61,100 nt of DNA from Bacteroidales bacterium (GTDB lineage: Bacteria; Bacteroidota; Bacteroidia; Bacteroidales; ML635J-15), in NCBI GenBank assembly GCA_035406965.1, contig DAONZU010000001.1, positions 1-61,100 on the forward strand, in the 5' to 3' direction. Shown here in pieces: positions 1,530-44,468 of this stretch (position 1 is its first letter; each line of letters starts with the position of its first letter). A program made the translations under genes and the position numbers. The notes under the pieces are model-generated. The model saw only the letters and a program-made list of their open reading frames with translations, was not told the DNA's origin and ran no database searches.

Positions 1530-2456
1530 ATGAAAAAAATATATTTAATAATTATAGTTTTAATATTTGCTTCTGCAAGTAAATTGTCAACACAACAATT
1601 GCCACTATATAGCCAATATATGTTTAATCGAATGTTGTTAAATCCTGCAGTAACAGGAAGCACAGATGCTATAGATTTAAGACTAACTGCTAGACAACAA
1701 TGGGTAGGAATTGATAAAGGACCTTCTACTCAATTAATCAGCGGACATTTATCACTAGTAAACGGAACTATGGGAGTTGGTGGAATTATTTTTGCTGATA
1801 GATTTGGACCAGAAACTAAAATAGGTTTGCAAGCGAACTATGCATACATTTTACCAGTATTTAAAGAATCTGCTAAATTAGCATTTGGACTTTCTTTACA
1901 AGTTTTTCAATATCAAATGAATTATGCAAACCTAACATATTTAGATGCCGGTGATCCAGAATTGAATTTTAACAAAGAAAATGCATGGCTACCAGAAAGC
2001 GATTTCGGAATTTATTTATATTCAACAAAATATTTCGCTGGAATTTCAGGAAATCAATTATTAGAATTACCTGTAAAAATTGGTACTAGCTATATAGATA
2101 GAAGTAATACAAGTACACTTTCACGACATTATCATCTATTAGGTGGATATATGTTTAATCTAAATACCAATTTCGCTTTAGAACCATCTGTATTATTGAA
2201 AACAACTTTTAAATCGCCTTTCCAAGCTGATATAAATTTAAGAGGAATTTATAAAAAAGATTACTGGTTAGGATTTTCGTATCGTACTGACGGAGCTATA
2301 GTTTCACTATTAGGAATGTCGTACAAAGATTTTATTTTCGGATTTGCTTTCGATTACGCAACCTCTAAAATTTCAAACTTTCAAGCAGGAACGTTTGAAG
2401 TAATGTTAGGATATAATATACATAGAAGTGAATATTCTGGAAGAAGTATGTTTTAA
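1530..2456 (+). CDS. sprF: PorP/SprF family type IX secretion system membrane protein
   Basis: Signal peptide followed by the family-typical QQLPLYSQYMFNRMLLNPA start; ~300-aa beta-barrel-like protein ending in F. Lies 12 nt downstream of a type B-CTD adhesin, like sprB-sprF in Flavobacterium johnsoniae. Confidence 0.85.
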   Translation: MKKIYLIIIVLIFASASKLSTQQLPLYSQYMFNRMLLNPAVTGSTDAIDLRLTARQQWVGIDKGPSTQLISGHLSLVNGTMGVGGIIFADRFGPETKIGLQANYAYILPVFKESAKLAFGLSLQVFQYQMNYANLTYLDAGDPELNFNKENAWLPESDFGIYLYSTKYFAGISGNQLLELPVKIGTSYIDRSNTSTLSRHYHLLGGYMFNLNTNFALEPSVLLKTTFKSPFQADINLRGIYKKDYWLGFSYRTDGAIVSLLGMSYKDFIFGFAFDYATSKISNFQAGTFEVMLGYNIHRSEYSGRSMF

Positions 2457-2490
2457 ATTTTTAAATAATAAAACTTAACTAAAAATATAA

Positions 2491-2518
2491 AAACGGAGTT
2501 AAAAGCTCCGTTTTTTTT
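2491..2518 (+). terminator. Rho-independent terminator after sprF
   Basis: AAACGGAG-ttaaaag-CTCCGTTT followed by a T8 run. Confidence 0.75.
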
Positions 2519-2531
2519 GCAATTTTGTAAA

Positions 2532-3398
2532 ATGATTAAAAAAATTAAAACATATCTATCTCTAGTAAAATTTTCTCATACAATTTTTGCTATGCCATTT
2601 GCACTAATTGGATTATTTATTGCAATTCAAGAACTTGGGCATTTCCCAAAATGGCATATTTTTGTATTAATCATTTTATGCATGATCCTGGCTCGTAATG
2701 CAGCAATGGCTTTTAATCGCTACACTGACCATAAAATAGATAAAGCTAATCCTCGTACTGCAATGAGAGAAATTCCAACAAATAAAGTTTCGCCAAAAAA
2801 TGCACTAATTTTCACTATAATTAATTCAATACTTTTTATTACTGCTACTTTTTTTATCAATAAAACTGTTTTTTACTTATCGCCTTTGGCTTTATTTATT
2901 GTTTTATCATATAGTTATACAAAAAGATTTACTTTTTTATCACATTTTATTCTTGGATTAGCATTATCAATAGCCCCTGCAGGAGCTTTTCTTGCAATAA
3001 ATTCACACCTAACTACTCAAATTATTATGCTATCAGCTGCTGTGCTCTTCTGGACTGCTGGCTTTGACATTTTATATTCATTACAAGATGAAGAATTTGA
3101 CCGCAAAAATGGTTTATTCTCAATTCCTGCTAAATATGGAAGAAAAAAATCATTAATACTATCAAGTTTAATTCACTTAGTCGCAGCATGTTTTATTATT
3201 TTATTTAGCTTAAGCTTAAATCAAAATTTTTTAACAATTATTGGAACTTGCATATTTTTGATTTTACTTTTTTTTCAACACTTAATTATAAAAAAAGATG
3301 ATATTTCAAAAATAAACATTGCTTTTGCATCTACAAATGGAATTGCATCACTATTATTTGCTATTTTTATTATTGCTTCGCTCTACTACAAAGTTTAA
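2532..3398 (+). CDS. UbiA family polyprenyltransferase (4-hydroxybenzoate polyprenyltransferase-like / menaquinone-pathway prenyltransferase)
   Basis: Polytopic membrane protein with the NRYTDHKIDKANPRT (NxxxDxxxD) and YSLQDEEFDRKNG Asp-rich motifs. The ORF-track start at 2517 is a TTG inside the terminator T-run, so I use the ATG at 2532. Confidence 0.8.
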   Translation: MIKKIKTYLSLVKFSHTIFAMPFALIGLFIAIQELGHFPKWHIFVLIILCMILARNAAMAFNRYTDHKIDKANPRTAMREIPTNKVSPKNALIFTIINSILFITATFFINKTVFYLSPLALFIVLSYSYTKRFTFLSHFILGLALSIAPAGAFLAINSHLTTQIIMLSAAVLFWTAGFDILYSLQDEEFDRKNGLFSIPAKYGRKKSLILSSLIHLVAACFIILFSLSLNQNFLTIIGTCIFLILLFFQHLIIKKDDISKINIAFASTNGIASLLFAIFIIASLYYKV

Positions 3399-3524
3399 AA
3401 AAAAATTAAAACACTTACTTCTTTAAAAACCTCAATAATTTATTTTGGAATTATGCTAATATGGAATATTATTTGCTAACAATATAATTTTAATAATATT
3501 ATTTCGTTTTAATTATTAAAAATG

Positions 3525-3544
3525 GATATTTTAAAATATCTTTG
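3525..3544 (+). promoter_or_regulatory. Perfect 16-bp palindrome GATATTTTAAAATATC overlapping a TAnnTTTG -7 box (TATCTTTG, 3537-3544)
   Basis: Read directly. The -7 box ends 17 nt before the ATG at 3562 and matches the Bacteroidetes sigma-A -7 consensus. Confidence 0.35.
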
Positions 3545-3561
3545 TTGTAAACAGTTTTTTA

Positions 3562-5586
3562 ATGAAAATAAGAAGGCAAATATTGTTATTATCGCTATTG
3601 CTATTATGCAGTTCTTATTTATTTTCACAATCATTTCAAGATTTTTGTAACGAAATAGATGATAAAAAACTTATTAAAAATTTTAATAAATCAATTGAAT
3701 ATATTAATTCAGGAAAACTTGACCAAGCCGAATTACTTTTATCAAAAATTGTGGACGAGGAACCCGAGTTTACAGAAGCCTGGATTGGAGTGGCAGAAAT
3801 TAATTATATTAAATATAAAAAATCAACAGACATTAAATCTCAAAATAAGTTTTACGCAAATTATGCAAGAAGTTTAGAAAAAGTAGCTAATACCTGTCCT
3901 CATTACAACAATTGGTCTGTAAATTTTACTCTTGGCAAAATGTTTTACGAAAAAGAAGATTATGTAAATGCAAAAAAATATCTTAATTTATACACTAAAA
4001 ATACCACAGAAGAAAGCAAAAACATAAAAGACGCAGAACTTATTTTAGATTATATTGATACGTATCTTGAATTAATATCTAATCCAGTACCTTTTAAACC
4101 TGTTATTGTTGAAGGCATTTCAACAGTTAATGATGATTTTTTACCACTAATTTCTCCTGATGGAAGTTTAGCATTTTTTACACATGCTTACATGAAAAAA
4201 GATATTAACAGCATAACTAGCGAAAAATATACAGAAGAATTTTCAGTTGCAAGAGCTTTAGATGAGTCAGGCACAAGGTTTTCGAAAGGAGAGCCTCTTC
4301 CCTACCCTTTTAACACTGGAAAAAACCAAGGAGCTTCTGCTTTAACAATTGATAACTCAACACTTTACGTTACTATTTGCGAATTTGTTTCTAGAACTTA
4401 TGATAACTGCGACATTTATTATTCTGTTAGAAAAGCAAATGGTTGGTCTGAATTAATTAATCTCGGACCTAATATAAACGGGCTAAACACATGGGAATCG
4501 CAACCTTCAATATCTGCTGATGGTAAAACTCTATATTTTTCAAGCATTAGAGAAGGTAATATCGGTTTCGACCCAAATAATCCAACATGTGATATTTGGT
4601 ATTCTACTAAAAATGCTGACGGAACATGGAATAAAGCTAAAAATCTCGGACCAACAATAAATACACCAGGAAACGAAAAATCTCCATTTATTCACTCCGA
4701 TAGTCAAACCTTATATTTTTCTTCAGACGGACACAAAGGCTTGGGCGGATATGATATTTTCTTCTCAAAATATAGAGATAATAAATGGAGTATTCCAATA
4801 AATCTCGGATATCCAATAAATACACAAGCACATGATTTAGGATTTGTAGTAAATACTCAAGGAACAAAAGCTTATTTTGCTAGTAATAAATTCAAAGGAA
4901 AAGGTGGCTGGGATATTTATTCATTTGATTTATATCCAGAAGCTAGACCAGAAAAAGTATTCCTAGTTAAAGGTAAACTTGTTGATGAAGTTGGTGAAAT
5001 TATTACAGAAGCTAAACTAGAAGTGAGAAATACAAGAACCAAAGAAATCTCAGAAGGATTATTGGACTCTGAAACAGGGCATTATGCAGTAGCTGTTACA
5101 AACGAAAAAGAAAAAGAAGACGATTTTGTAATGGTGGTAAAAAAAGAAGACTACAGCTTTACCTCTGCACTCATTGAAGTTGATGAAGAAATTTTCGAAG
5201 CTCCTTTAGTTATTGATTTTGAAATAAAACCAATAGAGAAAGGAAAATCTGTAGAGCTTCGTGATATAAACTATGCAACTGCTTCGTATCAAATAGATAA
5301 AAAGTCACTCCTTGTTCTTGATGAATTTATGATTTTTTTGAACGACAATCCTAATTTAAAAATTGAAATTCGAGGACATACTGATAACATAGGAAGTATG
5401 CAAACAAACATAACTCTATCTAACAATAGAGCCAAAGCCGTTTACGATTATTTAGTAAAGCATGGAGTAAATCCAGATAGATTGCAACATAAAGGTTATG
5501 GACCAAACTTGCCTATTGCTACTAACGAAACCGAAGCAGGAAGAGCAAAAAATCGCAGAACGGAGTTTTATATTTTAGAGAACTAA
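3562..5586 (+). CDS. OmpA family protein with N-terminal TPR region, PD40/TolB-like beta-propeller repeats and C-terminal OmpA peptidoglycan-binding domain
   Basis: Signal peptide. Repeated ..PNINGLNTWESQPSISADGKTLYFSS / GPTINTPGNEKSPFIHSDSQTLYFSS PD40-like units. C-terminus NIGSMQTNITLSNNRAKAVYDYLV..GRAKNRRTEFYIL is an OmpA_C signature. Confidence 0.85.
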   Translation: MKIRRQILLLSLLLLCSSYLFSQSFQDFCNEIDDKKLIKNFNKSIEYINSGKLDQAELLLSKIVDEEPEFTEAWIGVAEINYIKYKKSTDIKSQNKFYANYARSLEKVANTCPHYNNWSVNFTLGKMFYEKEDYVNAKKYLNLYTKNTTEESKNIKDAELILDYIDTYLELISNPVPFKPVIVEGISTVNDDFLPLISPDGSLAFFTHAYMKKDINSITSEKYTEEFSVARALDESGTRFSKGEPLPYPFNTGKNQGASALTIDNSTLYVTICEFVSRTYDNCDIYYSVRKANGWSELINLGPNINGLNTWESQPSISADGKTLYFSSIREGNIGFDPNNPTCDIWYSTKNADGTWNKAKNLGPTINTPGNEKSPFIHSDSQTLYFSSDGHKGLGGYDIFFSKYRDNKWSIPINLGYPINTQAHDLGFVVNTQGTKAYFASNKFKGKGGWDIYSFDLYPEARPEKVFLVKGKLVDEVGEIITEAKLEVRNTRTKEISEGLLDSETGHYAVAVTNEKEKEDDFVMVVKKEDYSFTSALIEVDEEIFEAPLVIDFEIKPIEKGKSVELRDINYATASYQIDKKSLLVLDEFMIFLNDNPNLKIEIRGHTDNIGSMQTNITLSNNRAKAVYDYLVKHGVNPDRLQHKGYGPNLPIATNETEAGRAKNRRTEFYILEN

Positions 5587-40789: not shown

Positions 40790-40837
40790 TTACTCATTCT
40801 CCAAAAAATATTGTTTTTCTACATCATATTCAGTAAC
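40790..40837 (-). pseudogene. Orphan 3'-terminal gene fragment, left copy of a 48-bp direct repeat
   Basis: The minus strand reads VTEYDVEKQYFLENE*. It is 45/48 nt identical to the true 3' end of the 121-aa ORF at 43375-43422 (VTEYDVEKQYFLEND*). Upstream the frame holds only an A/T-run-derived K/F-rich stretch, with no Met before a stop at 40874-40876. Confidence 0.75.
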
Positions 40838-40851
40838 TTTTTTTCTTTTTA

Positions 40852-40882
40852 TTTGCTTATTAAAAAAAAATGTTTATATTTG
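40852..40882 (+). promoter_or_regulatory. Consensus Bacteroidetes promoter: -33 TTTG (40852-40855), 19-nt spacer, -7 TATATTTG (40875-40882)
   Basis: Read directly. It points rightward into the cassette, about 500 nt upstream of the first cassette gene. Confidence 0.5.
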
Positions 40883-40994
40883 TACAAGAAATAGTATAAA
40901 AAACATTTTAGCGTGCAAAACAACTTTAAATATAGACAAAAAAAATTGTTTTTATTAAACATGCTGTTTTTTAATTTATTTTACATAGCACTTA

Positions 40995-41006
40995 CCCCCC
41001 CCCCCC
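40995..41006 (+). repeat. C12 homopolymer tract
   Basis: cttaCCCCCCCCCCCCgcac. I saw no comparable G/C homopolymer elsewhere in this AT-rich window. Confidence 0.95.
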
Positions 41007-41182
41007 GCACCTCCTAAACACCTTGCCACACAATGACTATGAGAATCTTCGCCATTTTGAAAGCAGACATGAAAACACATTACCATATAAAAAAATTGAC
41101 AAAAATAGTTGCAATACAAATAAAAATACCTATGTAAAAAAATTAACAAAACAATTAAAAGAAAAACATGGGACTTAACATA

Positions 41183-41220
41183 GGCGACTTGTCTTTAAAA
41201 CTTTAAAGAGACCAGTCGCC
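41183..41220 (+). other. Interrupted stem-loop in the cassette leader
   Basis: GGCGACTTGTCTT..loop..AGAGACCAGTCGCC. 7 bp, one mismatch, then ~6 bp including a G-U pair. No adjacent T-run; the nearest TTTTT is 14 nt downstream. Confidence 0.5.
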
Positions 41221-41384
41221 GTTATACTAATAGTTTTTACGAGCAATATTTAAGCAACGACAGAGTCCAAAAATAGCTATTACAGTAAACTCTGTTGTAA
41301 GGTAAGATAAAAGTAATAGCTATATTATAAAATTTATGCTTGATTTTATAATGAATATTAAATAAGCAAAAAAAAATAAAAATT

Positions 41385-42080
41385 ATGAAAAAAGTTTTTT
41401 TAAATTCAATAATAATCCTAGTTATTTTAGGAGTTAGTGTATTATCTTGTGAAAAAGCTGAAGAAATAAAAAAAGCTGAAAAAGAAAATGTTAAAGAATC
41501 AGAAATAATGTCAACAAAAAGTATGAAAAATTATCTAGAAATAGATTTTGCTTACAATAATTTCTCACATAAATTTATTGGAGAAAAACCTAATGACATG
41601 CTAATATGGCAAGAAAAAATCGGAACTGATCAAGAAAGGAAAAGCAAGTTTAATTTTGATTATAAAAGCATGCCTGACATTAACGTTAAGCACGTATCTG
41701 ATAAAGTTTTAATTTTAAATATTAATAAAGTTGACTATATATTTGACTATGGTATGACAAAAAATTATTGGGACGCTACAGTGAGCACCAGAACCAGTAG
41801 TAATATTGCAAAAATAAGCATGTACACAGATGCTCATGATTTTAATGAAATGATGGATTTTTACAAAAAAAACCCTGTCATTTCATTTAATTCAAGAGGT
41901 CCTATCACATGGATACTTGCATATCAAGCTGCAAAAATAGCCATTATTGTATGGGCAGCGGATAGATATTGTGATGCGAAAGTCGAAAATCAAAAAAACG
42001 AATGTATTGAAAAAGGTCTATGCTACACAGTTAAATTTTGTGGTGCTGAATGTCGTGAATGTGCTAATAACAACAATTAA
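41385..42080 (+). CDS. Hypothetical lipoprotein with hydrophobic helix and cysteine-rich C-terminal tail
   Basis: Lipobox VLSC followed by an acidic EKAEE. Near-C-terminal hydrophobic segment ITWILAYQAAKIAIIVWAA. The tail RYCDAKVENQKNECIEKGLCYTVKFCGAECRECANNNN has 7 Cys in the last 38 residues. Confidence 0.7.
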   Translation: MKKVFLNSIIILVILGVSVLSCEKAEEIKKAEKENVKESEIMSTKSMKNYLEIDFAYNNFSHKFIGEKPNDMLIWQEKIGTDQERKSKFNFDYKSMPDINVKHVSDKVLILNINKVDYIFDYGMTKNYWDATVSTRTSSNIAKISMYTDAHDFNEMMDFYKKNPVISFNSRGPITWILAYQAAKIAIIVWAADRYCDAKVENQKNECIEKGLCYTVKFCGAECRECANNNN

Positions 42081-42107
42081 ATAAAAATTTTATTATATAA
42101 AAAACAA

Positions 42108-42156
42108 GTCGCCAGAAATTTATTAACTTAAATTTCTGGCGACATAATTTTTTTAC
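42108..42156 (+). terminator. Strong intrinsic terminator between the two cassette genes
   Basis: GTCGCCAGAAATTT-attaactt-AAATTTCTGGCGAC. A 14-bp perfect stem followed by ATAATTTTTTT. Confidence 0.8.
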
Positions 42157-42164
42157 TATAATAT

Positions 42165-43352
42165 ATGAAATTTAAACTAAAATTAAAACACTACACGCTA
42201 TATTTAGGACTTATAACCTACATTATAGGAATTGCTTTAAATATTTTTTATTCTCTGTATTCAAATCAACCAGGTCCGCAACAGTCGCAATCTCCATTGT
42301 TTGAACTTTTGTCATTGTTTCCACCTATAATTATACTAGCCTTAACATTAGTAAGTGCATCAATTTTTGAAGAATTGGCATTTCGAGGATGGACTATTAA
42401 ACATAAGTTTTCAAAATATATCTCAATCATAGGTATTTTGTTTTATTGTTTTTTAGCAACAAACAGTTTCATAATTTGTGTCATTGTATTAGCTCTACTA
42501 ATTTTTGTTTTTTTCTACAAAAATGATGAATTGAGCCAATTCTTAAAAGTTATTGTTACAAGTCTAATTTTTGCATTCATCCACTTTGATAACTTTAGCG
42601 ACAATATGCGATATATCAGCATCTTGCAACTATTCGGATTATCTCTGATTATAAGTTACTTTGCACTTAGATTTGGATTTGTTTACGGAATATTAATACA
42701 TTTCGCAAATAATCTTTTAGCAACAATTATAATATTTACAACATCTGTTAATTACAGCACAAGTATTGTAAAAGAAAATTATGTTGCAAATATTGAAAAA
42801 ATCGAATTTTTAGAAAACTCATCTTCAATACTAAAAGGTAGTTTTCAAGATTCTATTGTTCATGTTGGAAATATTACACAAATTGCTGTAGAATTAGCCC
42901 CTTTTAATAATGAAGTAATTTACAAAGCAAAATTAAGTAGTTTAGACTCATATCATTATGTCGCTAAATGTAAAAACAAGGGAACTTGTACACTTGACAG
43001 ACAAGAATTATTAAAAGACTTTTTAAATCACACTAATTTAAAAACAGACACAATATTAGTTGATGCATTTATTTTAAAAATTACAGATATTGATAAATTG
43101 CAAAAGCATAGAGCAGATGGACAAACAACATTTATTAAATATTTGGTTGAAATTTTAAGAAATGATTTTGATATACCTATTATAATAAATGAAGATATTG
43201 CAGATATTAGTTTTATTATGCCTGATAATTTTTATAGAATATTTCACAAATTATCTACTGAAGACAAAATCAAAAAACTGGAAACTGACTATGGCATTCT
43301 TTTAGAAAAGACAATTGATAAAACTGTTTCAGTGATTTACTTTTTTGAATAA
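42165..43352 (+). CDS. CPBP family intramembrane glutamic endopeptidase (CAAX protease / Abi) fused to an unassigned ~200-aa C-terminal domain
   Basis: All three CPBP motifs are intact: SIFEELAFRGW (EExxxR), FAFIHFDN (FxxxH), ILIHFANNL (HxxxN). About 6 TM segments in the first ~195 aa. Residues ~200-395 are soluble with no motif I recognise. Confidence 0.8.
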   Translation: MKFKLKLKHYTLYLGLITYIIGIALNIFYSLYSNQPGPQQSQSPLFELLSLFPPIIILALTLVSASIFEELAFRGWTIKHKFSKYISIIGILFYCFLATNSFIICVIVLALLIFVFFYKNDELSQFLKVIVTSLIFAFIHFDNFSDNMRYISILQLFGLSLIISYFALRFGFVYGILIHFANNLLATIIIFTTSVNYSTSIVKENYVANIEKIEFLENSSSILKGSFQDSIVHVGNITQIAVELAPFNNEVIYKAKLSSLDSYHYVAKCKNKGTCTLDRQELLKDFLNHTNLKTDTILVDAFILKITDIDKLQKHRADGQTTFIKYLVEILRNDFDIPIIINEDIADISFIMPDNFYRIFHKLSTEDKIKKLETDYGILLEKTIDKTVSVIYFFE

Positions 43353-43374
43353 AAACTCAAAGTTTTAATATTCT

Positions 43375-43422
43375 TTAATCATTCTCTAAAAAATATTGTT
43401 TTTCCACATCATATTCAGTAAC
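43375..43422 (-). repeat. Right copy of the 48-bp direct repeat (functional 3' end of the 121-aa ORF)
   Basis: See 40790..40837. The three mismatches are two synonymous changes and one E/D change in the minus-strand frame. Confidence 0.85.
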
Positions 43423-43740
43423 CTCATCAAAAGGGTCTAAAGCAACAATTTTAAACTTGAGTAAATAGCTATTATCTTTAAACACCACAGAATCTGCAAG
43501 CAAAGAATCCTTAATTTCTGCTTCGTGCTCATCAAAGATTAATATAATAGGTGCGATTTCTCTACCTTGTTGTCCTTTTTGTGCATCAACAGATTTTGGT
43601 AAATATTTTGTCAAACAAGCTTTTGTGGCTGGAAAATCATCAAGTCCACCTATACTCAAATCATAATTATAAATTGTTGCACAAGCAAAAAATGCTAATA
43701 CCAAAGAATACAAAATTGCTGGAATTATTATTTTTTTCAT
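43375..43740 (-). CDS. Hypothetical lipoprotein (121 aa)
   Basis: Signal with lipobox LAFFAC. ATGA overlap with the upstream thioredoxin-like gene. Confidence 0.65.
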   Translation of the reverse strand: MKKIIIPAILYSLVLAFFACATIYNYDLSIGGLDDFPATKACLTKYLPKSVDAQKGQQGREIAPIILIFDEHEAEIKDSLLADSVVFKDNSYLLKFKIVALDPFDEVTEYDVEKQYFLEND

Positions 43741-44468
43741 TGAGATATAATTTTAGAAGTAAATTTTGAGTTGTCATCAAAAACAAAATTTACGATATAC
43801 AAAGATTTTGAAATTAGTGAAGGAATTCTGACAAGGTTTTTTGGATATTTTTTATTTAAGAGTAAACGTCCCATATAATCGTAAATTTGAATTTCACAAA
43901 CTTTTTTATCAGATTCAAAATTCAAAAAATTACCCACAATATTAAATGTAAAATCATTATTTTTTTCTTCAAGTTTTGAAGAAGGTAAGCAATAATTTAA
44001 TGTTTCAACTATATTAAAATAAGATATTGATTCTGAAACAATATAATCACAAACCATCATTATTTGTGGAGTATAATTTATTTCATATAATCCAAACACA
44101 TCTGTTGCATGTCCTGTAGGGAAACATCTAAAAGTTATATTATGCAATTCCATAAAAGCTTCTATTTCTTCGCTATTATAATAATAGTGTACAATTCCCC
44201 AGACAATTAAATCTTGGGTTCCCGAACCATATTGCCTATGAATAGAGTCCACAATTGGAGCTACTTCAATACAAGAGCCACAATTTAGAGAGAAAAAATG
44301 TAGTAAAACCACTTTTCCTGCTGCAATGCTATCATAAAGGTTAACTTCCTCGCCTTTAGTGTCTAACAAAGAAAAATCAGGAGCTGGTTTATAGGTTTGA
44401 GCTGGTAAAAATTCAAAACTTATTATTAAAATAAATAACAAAATTAATATATACTTTACTTTTTTCAC
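43737..44468 (-). CDS. TlpA-like thioredoxin-fold protein carrying a T9SS type A C-terminal sorting domain
   Basis: Signal peptide. APDFSLLDTKGEEVNL..VVLLHFFSLNCGSC (CxxC). C-terminal ~75 aa ..CEIQIYDYMGRLLLNKKY..SLYIVNFVFDDNSKFTSKIISQ looks like a Por-type CTD. Confidence 0.7.
   Translation of the reverse strand: MKKVKYILILLFILIISFEFLPAQTYKPAPDFSLLDTKGEEVNLYDSIAAGKVVLLHFFSLNCGSCIEVAPIVDSIHRQYGSGTQDLIVWGIVHYYYNSEEIEAFMELHNITFRCFPTGHATDVFGLYEINYTPQIMMVCDYIVSESISYFNIVETLNYCLPSSKLEEKNNDFTFNIVGNFLNFESDKKVCEIQIYDYMGRLLLNKKYPKNLVRIPSLISKSLYIVNFVFDDNSKFTSKIISQ

Follow-up and report, generated by a model that had tools for sequence, protein, structure and literature searches.

A window of 61,100 nucleotides from a Bacteroidales bacterium (contig DAONZU010000001.1, positions 1 to 61,100 of the forward strand) contains, side by side, a gene for a lipoprotein with a Cys-rich tail and a gene for a CPBP-type intramembrane protease with a long C-terminal extension. 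This arrangement raises the question of whether the two genes belong together and, if so, what the protease does for its neighbour. Bacterial CPBP proteases are abundant, but to our knowledge a substrate or role is known for a handful of them only, and each new conserved pair of a CPBP and a partner is a route to test target choice and cutting. The pairing of the two families described here is far beyond chance, and a joint role of the two proteins in the cell envelope is very probable. The lipoprotein family, which comes from Bacteroidota, is previously undescribed, and its gene nearly always lies directly 5' of that for a long CPBP. The pair is compact, consisting of two genes without accessory factors, and heterologous reconstitution is possible; its practical reach is limited by the rarity of the family, which comprises ~24 sequence clusters.

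The lipoprotein encoded by gene 1

Gene 1 (41385 to 42080, plus strand) encodes a protein of 231 amino acids and gene 2 (42165 to 43352, plus strand) one of 395 amino acids; both open reading frames had been reported in a preliminary description of this DNA and were recovered here. The gene 1 product is composed of an SPII signal with the lipobox VLSC (Cys22), a low-complexity linker, a nine-strand beta body (residues ~51 to 148) and a flexible hinge (~165 to 184), followed by a hydrophobic helix and the Cys-rich tail. Its AF2 model has a pLDDT of 76 overall and of 86 to 96 in the body. The description of gene 1 as an uncharacterised lipoprotein holds: no match was found in Pfam and NCBIfam, a word-index search of 5.8 billion proteins returned gene 1 itself as the sole match, and a word-index search with a profile of three gene-1 sequences yielded only gene 1 itself and one further protein (P0007). 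Foldseek with the gene 1 model gave no significant match, with weak FABP- or lipocalin-like barrels only (E of at least 0.009, TM of at most 0.36), and profiles of the gene-1 and CPBP families found nothing among PDB sequences. This new family was revealed only by an exhaustive profile search of 1.84 billion representative proteins, which uncovered about 23 relatives with the same architecture (24 sequence clusters). All of them stem from uncultured Bacteroidota, and their distribution is rare and patchy. Two relatives matched the pore-forming toxin BSAP5b (NCBIfam NF053772) with 17 to 18 bits against a cutoff of 380, and these matches are confined to the N-terminal ~100 to 130 residues, which cover the signal peptide, the linker and the start of the body; the candidate was rejected, as were GldD, TrsH and FliL, whose matches to the family are weak noise of the same kind. 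A literature search for "BSAP5" and "M949_0222" found nothing relevant.

The N-terminus had been likened to the surface-export signal of Bacteroidota lipoproteins (LES), which is defined as C-X-K-(D/E)2-X at positions +2 to +6 (PMC5080379). The lipobox part of this claim stands, and by inspection a lipobox is present in every full-length member of the family. The resemblance to LES is approximate only: the lipobox Cys is followed by EKAEE, which displaces the acidic pair by one position. By inspection, a Lys at +3 is found in ~15 of 19 family members, but few of them have K-(D/E)2 in its strict form.

The hydrophobic helix ITWILAYQAAKIAIIVWAA spans residues 174 to 192 (41904 to 41960, plus strand), starts with a conserved P-x-W and ends at the [DE]-x-Y-C-D motif. 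The segment is present as first described; as a membrane span it is borderline, with a Kyte-Doolittle value of 1.58 and a Lys at position 184. Across the family, the median value is 1.79, and a charged residue is found in 19 of 28 segments. Next comes the Cys-rich tail (residues 193 to 231; 41961 to 42077, plus strand), which consists of 39 residues with six cysteines at positions 196, 207, 213, 219, 223 and 226 (C196-x10-C207-x5-C213-x5-C219-x3-C223-x2-C226). The earlier count of seven cysteines in 38 residues has to be corrected, the seventh being the lipobox Cys22. Family tails comprise 35 to 45 residues with four to six cysteines and end in CxxC plus 0 to 10 residues. The tail is the best conserved part of the protein, with a mean identity of 34% compared to 26% for the helix and 17% for the body. 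C196, which lies at the helix end, and C219 are invariant across the family, while C213 and C226 are lost jointly (Fisher p=8e-4).

AF2 places a helix at residues 179 to 209 and strands at 213 to 217 and 220 to 224, with block-mean pLDDT values of 72 to 93 over residues 191 to 230; in this prediction, the tail extends the helix and then forms a beta-hairpin. C196 and C207 are 11 residues apart along one predicted continuous helix, which fits disulfide staples better than a single Zn site. The alternative of a Zn-binding tail in the cytoplasm was rejected, since paired CxxC knuckles are missing from the invariant spacing (10, 11, 3) and C196 and C207 share one predicted helix; the paired loss of C213 and C226 and the flank of the tail, which is not positively charged (net charge of -2 to 0 over the first 15 residues after the helix), also speak against it. 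A periplasmic, disulfide-bonded tail is therefore more likely than a cytoplasmic one.

The long-form CPBP protease and its linkage to gene 1

The product of gene 2 matches the Rce1-like Pfam family PF02517 above the gathering score (31.5 versus 22.4 bits, E=2.2e-7; residues 54 to 185, profile positions 4 to 93 of 93). Pfam, the AF2 model, motif conservation and loop charges delimit a CPBP/Rce1-like membrane domain of residues 1 to 193 (42165 to 42743, plus strand), for which AF2 predicts seven helices within residues 6 to 193 (pLDDT 70 to 90). The three CPBP motifs noted at the outset are intact: EExxxR as EELAFR (residues 69 to 74; 42369 to 42386), FxxxH as FAFIH (136 to 140; 42570 to 42584) and HxxxN/D as HFANN (179 to 183; 42699 to 42713), all on the plus strand. 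EE..R, F..H and H..NN are kept in all 20 long CPBPs, and gene 2 is proposed from its sequence to encode a catalytically competent CPBP glutamic intramembrane protease. The membrane domain is followed by a C-terminal alpha/beta domain of ~200 amino acids (residues 194 to 395 and stop codon; 42744 to 43352, plus strand), which is common to all long-form CPBPs and conserved in paired and orphan proteins alike. This extension, which the preliminary description could not assign, still cannot be assigned: residues ~194 to 395 match no model in Pfam and NCBIfam, the family has no PDB sequence match, and Foldseek with the CPBP model, in which the C-terminal domain has a low-confidence pLDDT below 50, gave nothing usable. 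A comparison by hhalign found neither a relationship between gene 1 and the C-terminal domain nor an internal repeat within the latter. The K+R counts of the CPBP loops alternate in the 20 long CPBPs (3.0/0.5/3.9/0.1/2.6/0.6/1.1), from which we infer that the N-terminus lies inside and the C-terminal domain in the periplasm.

Whether the two families co-occur had been set beforehand as a refutation test; a lack of co-occurrence beyond this genome, which would have refuted the pair, is clearly contradicted by the loci gathered in a CPBP-centred locus scan. A gene-1 homolog is located directly 5' of a long CPBP gene, and in the same orientation, in 12 distinct loci, the window and 11 others, which are surrounded by unrelated flanking genes. 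The spacers range from -7 to 92 bp, and one locus (L017) carries tandem gene-1 copies followed by a single CPBP gene. Gene 1 and the long CPBP are the only families that recur in 14 neighbourhoods; no kinase, sigma factor, transducer, leader peptide, exporter, regulator or lysis gene does so. The two families also co-diverge, as their pairwise identities correlate with r=0.70 (Mantel p~2e-4). The module matched none of the PADLOC models and was not found in viral contigs and plasmids. A perfect 15-bp stem-loop with a T-run (42108 to 42143, plus strand; -28.3 kcal/mol, z=-9.0) lies between the two genes and ends 21 nt 5' of the CPBP ATG. Its sequence resembles that of an intrinsic terminator or attenuator, and a strong hairpin (z of -4 to -8.6) is present in all eight loci with a spacer of 69 to 92 bp.

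The linkage is asymmetric: long CPBPs are often found alone, and a gene-1 subclade pairs with a mini-protein. Neither a homolog nor a remnant of gene 1 lies within ~4 kb of eight long CPBPs, among them those of all six close relatives of this genome. In three loci (L012, L043 and L046), a gene-1 homolog without a nearby CPBP is followed by a gene for a mini-protein with a K-rich N-terminus, a strongly hydrophobic anchor as membrane helix and the homologous Cys tail, an order which implies that the N-terminus is inside and the tail outside.

Comparison with the close relatives defines a strain-variable segment at this locus. Homology to four of them (L001, L014, L025 and L030) ends at position 40792, and for all six it is lost precisely at the nadE stop codon and picks up exactly at the CPBP ATG; the segment that differs (40793 to 42164) comprises the leader and gene 1 only. 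In six close relatives, an MscS gene occupies the slot between the nadE stop codon and the CPBP ATG. The CPBP gene itself is syntenic and ~92% identical to those of the close relatives, and the GC content of the locus does not deviate. Of the inserted cassette that had been proposed, the leader and gene 1 thus remain as a segment that differs, and the CPBP gene has to be left out. The left edge of the segment is marked by a 48-nt direct-repeat copy (40790 to 40837), which is located immediately past the nadE stop codon in minus-strand sense and preserves, as a relic, the 3' end of a 121-aa lipoprotein gene, encoding VTEYDVEKQYFLENE and the stop. It is 94% identical to positions 43375 to 43422, the second copy, which is the genuine 3' end of this lipoprotein gene (43375 to 43740, minus strand). 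Between the relic and gene 1 lies a non-coding leader of 547 nt (40838 to 41384, plus strand) without a credible open reading frame, which is not present in the close relatives and contains a C-rich tract (~40997 to 41011) and a stem-loop (41183 to 41220, hairpin z=-3.9). The promoter is presumably located in this leader. A scan for sigma-70 promoters scored the real sequence no better than shuffles, as is expected in Bacteroidota, and an Rfam search of the leader and the intergenic spacer yielded no family.

Comparison with known CPBP systems

In the MrtJ/JDVT-CTERM system, a dedicated CPBP is encoded beside its one client, which carries a C-terminal helix signal with a Cys, and 16 of 17 pairs are adjacent (Haft 2023, bioRxiv 10.1101/2023.06.07.544157); cleavage of MYXO-CTERM by MrtX has been demonstrated in experiments (Guo, Haft and Wall 2025, PMC11980579). 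As in both systems, a CPBP/Rce1-type glutamic intramembrane protease is genetically tied here to a putative secreted client, whose conserved element is the C-terminus with a helix of borderline hydrophobicity beside an invariant Cys; as for MrtJ, there is one client per locus, adjoining its own protease. The adjacency of a client to a specific CPBP subfamily, which is a criterion for sorting signals, was found in the 12 distinct loci and is accompanied by co-divergence. In contrast to MYXO-, JDVT-, Synerg- and CGP-CTERM, in which the Cys stands immediately before the helix, the invariant cysteines (196 and 219) follow it here, and a CPWC motif ahead of the helix occurs in a few gene-1 members only. 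Instead of the terminal Arg-rich cytoplasmic cluster of Mrt clients, the proteins carry the tail of 35 to 45 residues with its predicted helix-hairpin knot; unlike those clients, they are also N-terminal lipoproteins, whose body is homologous across the family. The long CPBPs differ from Mrt proteases in their unique ~200-aa C-terminal domain, which is predicted to be periplasmic, and the lineage is Bacteroidota. Relatives of the long CPBP reach at most 19 bits with the NCBIfam models of MrtJ, MrtS and MrtX (cutoffs 75 to 130), and the window protein does not match them. Cysteines after the helix, a predicted folded knot and an extra protease domain are informative differences from known Cys-containing sorting signals.

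The nearest named CPBP model is NCBIfam NF052640 (M949_0222 family), which is the best NCBIfam match to the membrane domains of several long CPBPs (E down to 3e-9). However, these reach only 23 to 37 bits against a cutoff of 220, the window protein does not match at E<=0.01, and the model spans 213 positions without the C-terminal domain. The eukaryotic and archaeal CAAX protease Rce1 has the catalytic motifs and the Pfam family in common with gene 2, and its substrate recognition centres on a membrane-presented Cys near the C-terminus. In contrast to Rce1 systems, neither prenylation machinery nor a CaaX box is found here and the tails end in CxxC plus 0 to 10 residues; moreover, the substrate side is probably periplasmic, and the protease carries an extra soluble domain.

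A further comparison is offered by the Abi/CPBP self-immunity proteins of bacteriocin producers, such as PlnI and SkkI (Kjos et al. 2010, cited in PMC9298176). Similarities are a motif-intact CPBP gene immediately 3' of a small secreted-protein gene, orphan copies in non-producers and small membrane proteins as alternatives in the same position. In contrast, the upstream gene here encodes a 231-aa SPII lipoprotein that is not known to be toxic rather than a leader-peptide bacteriocin, the host is Gram-negative, transporter and quorum-sensing genes are absent, and the CPBP has an extra domain that is predicted to be periplasmic.

Possible roles of the pair

We tentatively favour a reading to which we would give slightly less than an even chance: by analogy with MrtJ/JDVT-CTERM, gene 1 and gene 2 may form a dedicated, co-inherited client-protease maturation pair. 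The gene 1 product would be exported by Sec and lipidated at Cys22, and the mature protein would lie wholly outside the cytoplasm: the beta body, the helix of moderate hydrophobicity and a mini-domain at the C-terminus, where two or three disulfides may staple the helix to a beta-hairpin. The protease, with seven predicted membrane helices, its N-terminus inside and the putative periplasmic domain of ~200 amino acids, might use this domain to dock the client, whose hydrophobic helix would enter the membrane-embedded cavity. Cleavage at the conserved [DE]-x-Y-C-D junction of helix and Cys knot, or close to it, could either free the lipoprotein from the inner membrane for outward trafficking or release a helix/knot peptide of ~4 to 6 kDa, and the stem-loop between the genes would hold the client in excess over the enzyme. 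Conserved adjacency, co-divergence, intact motifs in all long CPBPs, the conserved C-terminus of the client and the spacer hairpins speak for maturation. The eight orphan CPBPs speak against it, as does the mini-protein of the three CPBP-less loci, which the maturation model leaves unexplained. A C-terminus that is not tripartite, with the invariant Cys after a borderline hydrophobic helix and no Arg cluster, also counts against it.

The similarity to bacteriocin immunity suggests a different role, which we regard as unlikely. Gene 1 could encode a surface- or vesicle-displayed lipoprotein toxin with antibacterial activity, from which the CPBP protects the producer: the variable beta body would bind a receptor, the conserved helix and disulfide knot would act as a membrane-active warhead, and the inner-membrane CPBP would capture and cut the inserted helix, a task taken over by an anchored decoy knot in the mini-protein subclade. 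Gram-positive bacteria gain immunity from CPBP/Abi genes that directly follow bacteriocin genes, with small membrane proteins as an alternative type (PMC9298176); here, too, the gene after gene 1 codes for a CPBP or for a small membrane protein. The common orphan long CPBPs, including those of the closest relatives, which keep the CPBP without gene 1, are the classic pattern of a resistant non-producer or orphan immunity, and the tandem gene-1 copies ahead of one CPBP, the LES-like N-terminus as on Bacteroidota surface lipoproteins and the rare, patchy distribution (24 clusters among 1.84 billion representatives) would fit as well. The predicted Cys-stapled helix-hairpin bears what we take to be a resemblance to cysteine-stabilised alpha/beta toxin folds. 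However, gene 1 has no similarity to a known toxin or bacteriocin: it has no qualifying match among the toxin and bacteriocin families of Pfam and NCBIfam, and BSAP5b is matched in the signal-peptide region only. Moreover, the neighbourhood offers neither a leader peptide nor an exporter, regulator or lysis gene, and an immunity role of CPBPs is known for Gram-positive peptide bacteriocins only. The hairpin would set expression of the immunity gene below that of the toxin gene, and a lipid-anchored toxin would still require a release step. If this role were confirmed, the pair would extend the interbacterial weapons of Bacteroidota by a new type and would be the first case of CPBP-type immunity in a Gram-negative lineage. 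Cutting across the maturation and toxin readings is a broader claim of novelty, which we consider conceivable though rather doubtful: helix and disulfide knot might be a new C-terminal processing signal of inverted order, read by a new CPBP subfamily with its own periplasmic client-docking domain, or the module might represent a new class of Bacteroidota lipoprotein toxin, whose warhead is neutralised by an intramembrane protease or a membrane-anchored decoy knot.

It is quite unlikely that the CPBP acts without proteolysis, as a scaffold or sensor partner in an envelope complex or signalling system in the manner of SpdC or Abx1 with histidine kinases. Its C-terminal domain would then bind the lipoprotein body or the knot, and helix/knot modules, including the mini-proteins, would associate with each other. 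Tail and C-terminal domain are both predicted to be periplasmic, and knot-bearing mini-proteins can stand in for the CPBP downstream of gene 1, which suggests that the two may have binding in common and not catalysis. Matches resembling FecR_C, a module for protein interaction in the periplasm, occur at the extreme C-terminus of two of 15 C-terminal domains (E=7e-4 and 0.026); however, both are below the gathering score and concern these two sequences only. Some bacterial CPBPs are indeed receptors or regulators and not proteases (PMC9298176), but scaffolding homologs tend to lose the catalytic residues that are strictly kept in the 20 long CPBPs, and among the neighbouring genes none for a kinase, sigma factor or transducer recurs. 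Finally, the adjacency in the window could be an accident of recombination, with gene 1 sitting in a variable slot beside a housekeeping CPBP. The break in homology to the six relatives, the MscS gene in the slot and the relic repeat at the left junction would agree with such an accident, which we nevertheless hold to be very improbable, as it is largely refuted by the locus survey: the pairing recurs in 11 further loci, the two families co-diverge, and the hairpin between the genes is conserved. In addition, gene 1 and the CPBP of the window are each ~50% identical to their counterparts in the L006 pair, which fits joint inheritance.

The gene pair and its two families

The lipoprotein and the protease are encoded by neighbouring genes on the forward strand, and both reading frames lie exactly where the preliminary description had placed them. 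Gene 1 (41385-42080, +) encodes a protein of 231 amino acids with the lipobox VLSC (Cys22), which is followed by EKAEE, a body of around 150 residues, a hydrophobic stretch at residues 174-192 (ITWILAYQAAKIAIIVWAA) and a tail of 39 residues. The tail contains six cysteines (positions 196, 207, 213, 219, 223 and 226) and not seven, as originally counted; the seventh is the lipobox cysteine. The proposed likeness to the Bacteroidetes surface-export signal is approximate: the protein has C-E-K-A-E-E, against the LES optimum C-X-K-(D/E)2-X (PMC5080379). Gene 2 (42165-43352, +; 395 aa) matches the Pfam Rce1-like model PF02517 above its gathering score and contains the motifs EELAFR, FAFIH and HFANN; it is thus a CPBP protease, as had been proposed, and belongs to the CPBP/Rce1 family by every criterion that could be tested. 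Its C-terminal extension of about 200 residues, which the first reading could not assign, has no match among the Pfam or NCBIfam models (residues ~194-395).

Gene 1 is a member of a rare family. A search of a word-indexed database of 5.8 billion proteins returned only gene 1 itself, and a three-sequence profile retrieved one further relative from the same database. When 1.84 billion cluster representatives were searched exhaustively with a HMMER profile, 24 proteins were obtained at E<=1e-3, among which the repeat protein P0017 is spurious. The true relatives are mostly full-length (208-250 aa; six shorter entries of 94-175 aa are N-terminally truncated) and have one architecture in common: an SPII lipobox, then a stretch rich in Lys and acidic residues, a divergent body, a hydrophobic helix, which starts at P-x-W and ends in [DE]-x-Y-C-D, and a tail with the pattern C-x10-C-x5-C-x5-C-x3-C-x2-C. 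Mean pairwise identity is highest in the tail (34%), followed by the helix (26%) and the body (17%). Every member has Cys196 and Cys219, and almost every member has Cys207 and Cys223. In P0018, P0021, P0029 and the protein encoded at L031:1709-2416, C-P-W-C, which has a thioredoxin-like CxxC spacing, stands exactly at the helix start, where other members have P-x-W. Curated families gave no meaningful match to members of the gene-1 family; the pore-forming toxin BSAP5b was rejected, as its matches scored 17-18 bits (cutoff 380) and were confined to the first ~100-130 residues, which hold the signal peptide, the linker and the beginning of the body.

Conservation of the pairing and its genomic setting

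The genomic context was examined from both sides, using contig look-ups for gene 1 and CPBP-centred scans of genomes and metagenomes, and every open reading frame of each locus was scored with four custom HMMs, two for gene 1 (body and tail) and two for the CPBP (membrane domain and C-domain). A gene-1 homolog lies directly upstream of a CPBP gene encoding 387-425 amino acids on the same strand in 12 distinct loci (the window and L004, L006, L008, L010, L017, L018, L031, L034, L037, L041 and L042). The spacers range from -7 to 92 bp, all partner CPBPs carry the same C-terminal extension, and the surrounding genes differ in all paired loci. When 14 neighbourhoods were compared all against all, no families other than gene 1 and the CPBP gene recurred, and pairwise identities in one of the two families correlate with those in the other (Pearson 0.70, Mantel p~2e-4). 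The pairing therefore does occur outside this genome, the absence of which had been named as a ground for refutation.

The pairing is conserved, and the dependence is one-way. Long CPBPs without gene 1 are found in eight distinct loci (the L001 group, L005, L015, L016, L026, L027, L029 and L033), none of which has a homolog of gene 1, or a remnant of it, within about 4 kb. L033 encodes two long CPBPs in tandem (1087-2457 and 2663-3964). In L017, two tandem, divergent gene-1-like genes (2319-3073 and 3168-3872), one of which is split and the other of which has a non-lipobox signal, precede a single CPBP gene. Downstream of the module, L010 (6012-8684) and L008 (2714-4434) have runs of small same-strand reading frames (107-257 aa, no Pfam match); the two runs are not homologous to each other. 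Three distinct loci (L012, L043 and L046) carry a gene-1 homolog without CPBP. There, directly behind gene-1 homologs of one subclade, the CPBP gene is replaced by a gene for a mini-protein of 59-72 amino acids, in which a K-rich N-terminus is followed by a strongly hydrophobic helix and then by a gene-1-type cysteine tail (L012:4748-4951; L043:4197-4376, identical to L044:1472-1651; L046:4696-4914). L046 has no CPBP within 4 kb, and an IS transposase is located near the mini-protein locus in L043 and L044.

In the window, the module is flanked by gldB, an OMP beta-barrel gene, nadE, hppA and pdxJ. Six contigs of close relatives, Bacteroidales UBA5219 among them, share 90-92% identity with the window on either side; their homology ends at the nadE stop codon (40792) and restarts exactly at the CPBP start codon (42165), so that the CPBP gene stands in conserved synteny and only the leader and gene 1 (40793-42164) are variable. 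The interval is filled in these relatives not by gene 1 but by a gene for an MscS-type mechanosensitive channel (L001:4008-4783, L002:264-1040, also L014, L025 and L030; ~91% DNA identity), which L002 carries intact (258 aa) and L001 as a gene broken into two frames of 100 and 140 amino acids. A 48-nt direct repeat occurs right after the nadE stop codon (40790-40837) and again at 43375-43422, with 94% identity between the copies; together they bound a unit of 2585 bp (40790-43374) in which the leader, gene 1 and the CPBP gene lie. A gene at 43375-43740 (-) encodes a lipoprotein-like protein of 121 amino acids, and the left repeat copy is what is left of a copy of its 3' end. The repeats would be consistent with insertion at the end of this gene long ago and later replacement of the left part in the relatives. 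The suggestion of an inserted cassette is thus supported only in part: there are bounding repeats, but the GC content is unremarkable (~29%), the CPBP gene is syntenic in relatives, and no empty site for the 2585-bp unit was found. The 121-aa gene is convergent with the module, as is a gene (43737-44468, -) for a thioredoxin-fold, AhpC/TSA/TlpA-like protein with a sub-threshold match to a T9SS C-terminal sorting domain. A thiol-disulfide oxidoreductase as the neighbour of an exported protein rich in cysteines is suggestive, but relatives without gene 1 have both genes too, and neither recurs at another gene-1 locus.

Between the two genes of the module, a perfect 15-bp stem is followed by a T-run (42108-42143; -28.3 kcal/mol, z=-9), only 21 nt before the CPBP start codon. 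Comparably strong hairpins of unrelated sequence are present in all eight loci with a spacer of 69-92 bp (z -4 to -8.6); in the remaining three, gene 1 and the CPBP gene overlap or abut. From these hairpins we infer attenuation with read-through, by which the lipoprotein would be made in excess over the protease. The 547-nt leader of gene 1, which has no match in Rfam, contains a C-rich tract at ~40997-41011 (a run of 11 C, then GCACC), which is unusual at 29% GC, and a hairpin at 41183-41220 (13-bp stem, z=-3.9), whose GTCGCC/GGCGAC arms also occur in the intergenic hairpin.

Predicted structure and compartment

The AlphaFold2 model of gene 1, based on an alignment of 23 sequences, is usable (mean pLDDT 76). 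It shows a body of nine antiparallel strands (residues 51-148, pLDDT 86-96) and a short helix, a low-confidence hinge at ~165-184, one long helix (179-209) running from the hydrophobic segment into the tail, and a beta-hairpin in the tail (213-224, pLDDT ~84-93). A Foldseek search of the PDB returned nothing significant, the best hits being FABP/lipocalin-like barrels (E>=0.009, TM<=0.36). In the predicted tail, a single helix carries two invariant cysteines at a distance of 11 residues, and these face two strand cysteines. The third pair is jointly lost: Cys213 and Cys226 are both present in 17 members and both absent from 5, with 1 member having only the one and 1 only the other (Fisher p=8e-4, not corrected for phylogeny). 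The flank of the tail has a net charge of -2 to 0, without positive-inside bias, and the family helix is moderately hydrophobic (median Kyte-Doolittle 1.79), with a charged residue in 19 of 28 sequences. The mini-protein anchors are far more hydrophobic (~2.7) and are preceded by three to four Lys/Arg, which implies an N-in, tail-out topology for a putative anchor of this kind. Because of the cysteine geometry, the flank without positive-inside bias, the moderate hydrophobicity of the helix and the anchor topology of the mini-proteins, the gene-1 tail is more probably a mini-domain outside the cytoplasm, stapled by disulfides, than a zinc site in the cytoplasm.

In the CPBP model, seven helices make up the membrane part, which is predicted with confidence, and the C-domain has a pLDDT below 50. 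Across 20 long CPBPs, all of which retain the catalytic residues, the number of Lys and Arg per loop alternates (3.0/0.5/3.9/0.1/2.6/0.6/1.1), which predicts an N-in protein with seven spans and a periplasmic C-domain. The C-domain has no relative in the PDB or Pfam, is not related to gene 1 and contains no internal repeat. Sub-threshold matches to FecR_C (PF16344) at the extreme C-terminus of 2 of 15 C-domains (E=7e-4 and 0.026), one of them in L018:4580-5200 (C-domain residues 145-201), are at most a hint at a periplasmic interaction module.

Possible roles of the module

Gene 1 and gene 2 very probably belong together as a dedicated envelope module that is inherited jointly and acts on the periplasmic side of the inner membrane; that the two are neighbours by coincidence is hardly credible. 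The interpretation in the preliminary description is supported in part: the functional pairing stands on the 12 loci and the correlated divergence, and the protease may either process its neighbour or protect against it. We tentatively favour maturation of a client by its protease, because the catalytic motifs are strictly conserved, because the junction of helix and cysteines is the most conserved part of the client, because the hairpin suggests an abundant structural product with a catalytic partner, and because the hydrophobic segment near the C-terminus would have to be handled in a lipoprotein whose N-terminus resembles an export signal. Under this reading, the cut would fall at or near residues 192-197 (D-R-Y-C-D) and take ~4-6 kDa off the lipoprotein. 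There is also precedent: Haft described dedicated CPBPs adjoining single clients with a Cys-bearing C-terminal helix signal, with MrtJ and JDVT-CTERM adjacent in 16 of 17 cases (bioRxiv 10.1101/2023.06.07.544157), and the cleavage of MYXO-CTERM by MrtX has been shown (PMC11980579). Three points speak against maturation, however: the long CPBPs without gene 1, the subclade with mini-proteins, and an architecture outside the tripartite-signal definition.

The same exceptions can be accommodated by a toxin/immunity pair, for which Gram-positive Abi immunity provides a precedent (PMC9298176). Orphan CPBPs would naturally be read as orphan immunity genes and the small membrane protein as an alternative partner, and the loss of gene 1 at strain level with retention of the CPBP gene, as well as the tandem gene-1 copies in L017, would be in line with this role. 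Gene 1, however, has no similarity to any toxin, and accessory genes are absent; we consider the toxin/immunity reading less likely than maturation. A complex in which the CPBP acts non-proteolytically is rather improbable.

In the module, a CPBP protease is tied genetically to a partner of its own. The module is clean, compact, testable and informative on CPBP biology; it is also rare and limited to Bacteroidota that are uncultured, and the roles proposed for it are predictions. No description of the pairing was found in curated libraries or the searched literature, and the module is absent from the phage contigs, plasmids and defence-system models examined. Gene 2 is not a member of the MrtJ, MrtS, MrtX or M949_0222 families, scoring far below their cutoffs. 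The C-terminus of gene 1 does not qualify as a MYXO-/JDVT-type signal, given the position of the cysteine and the lack of the Arg cluster; the one trait of these systems that it clearly shares is adjacency to the protease gene.
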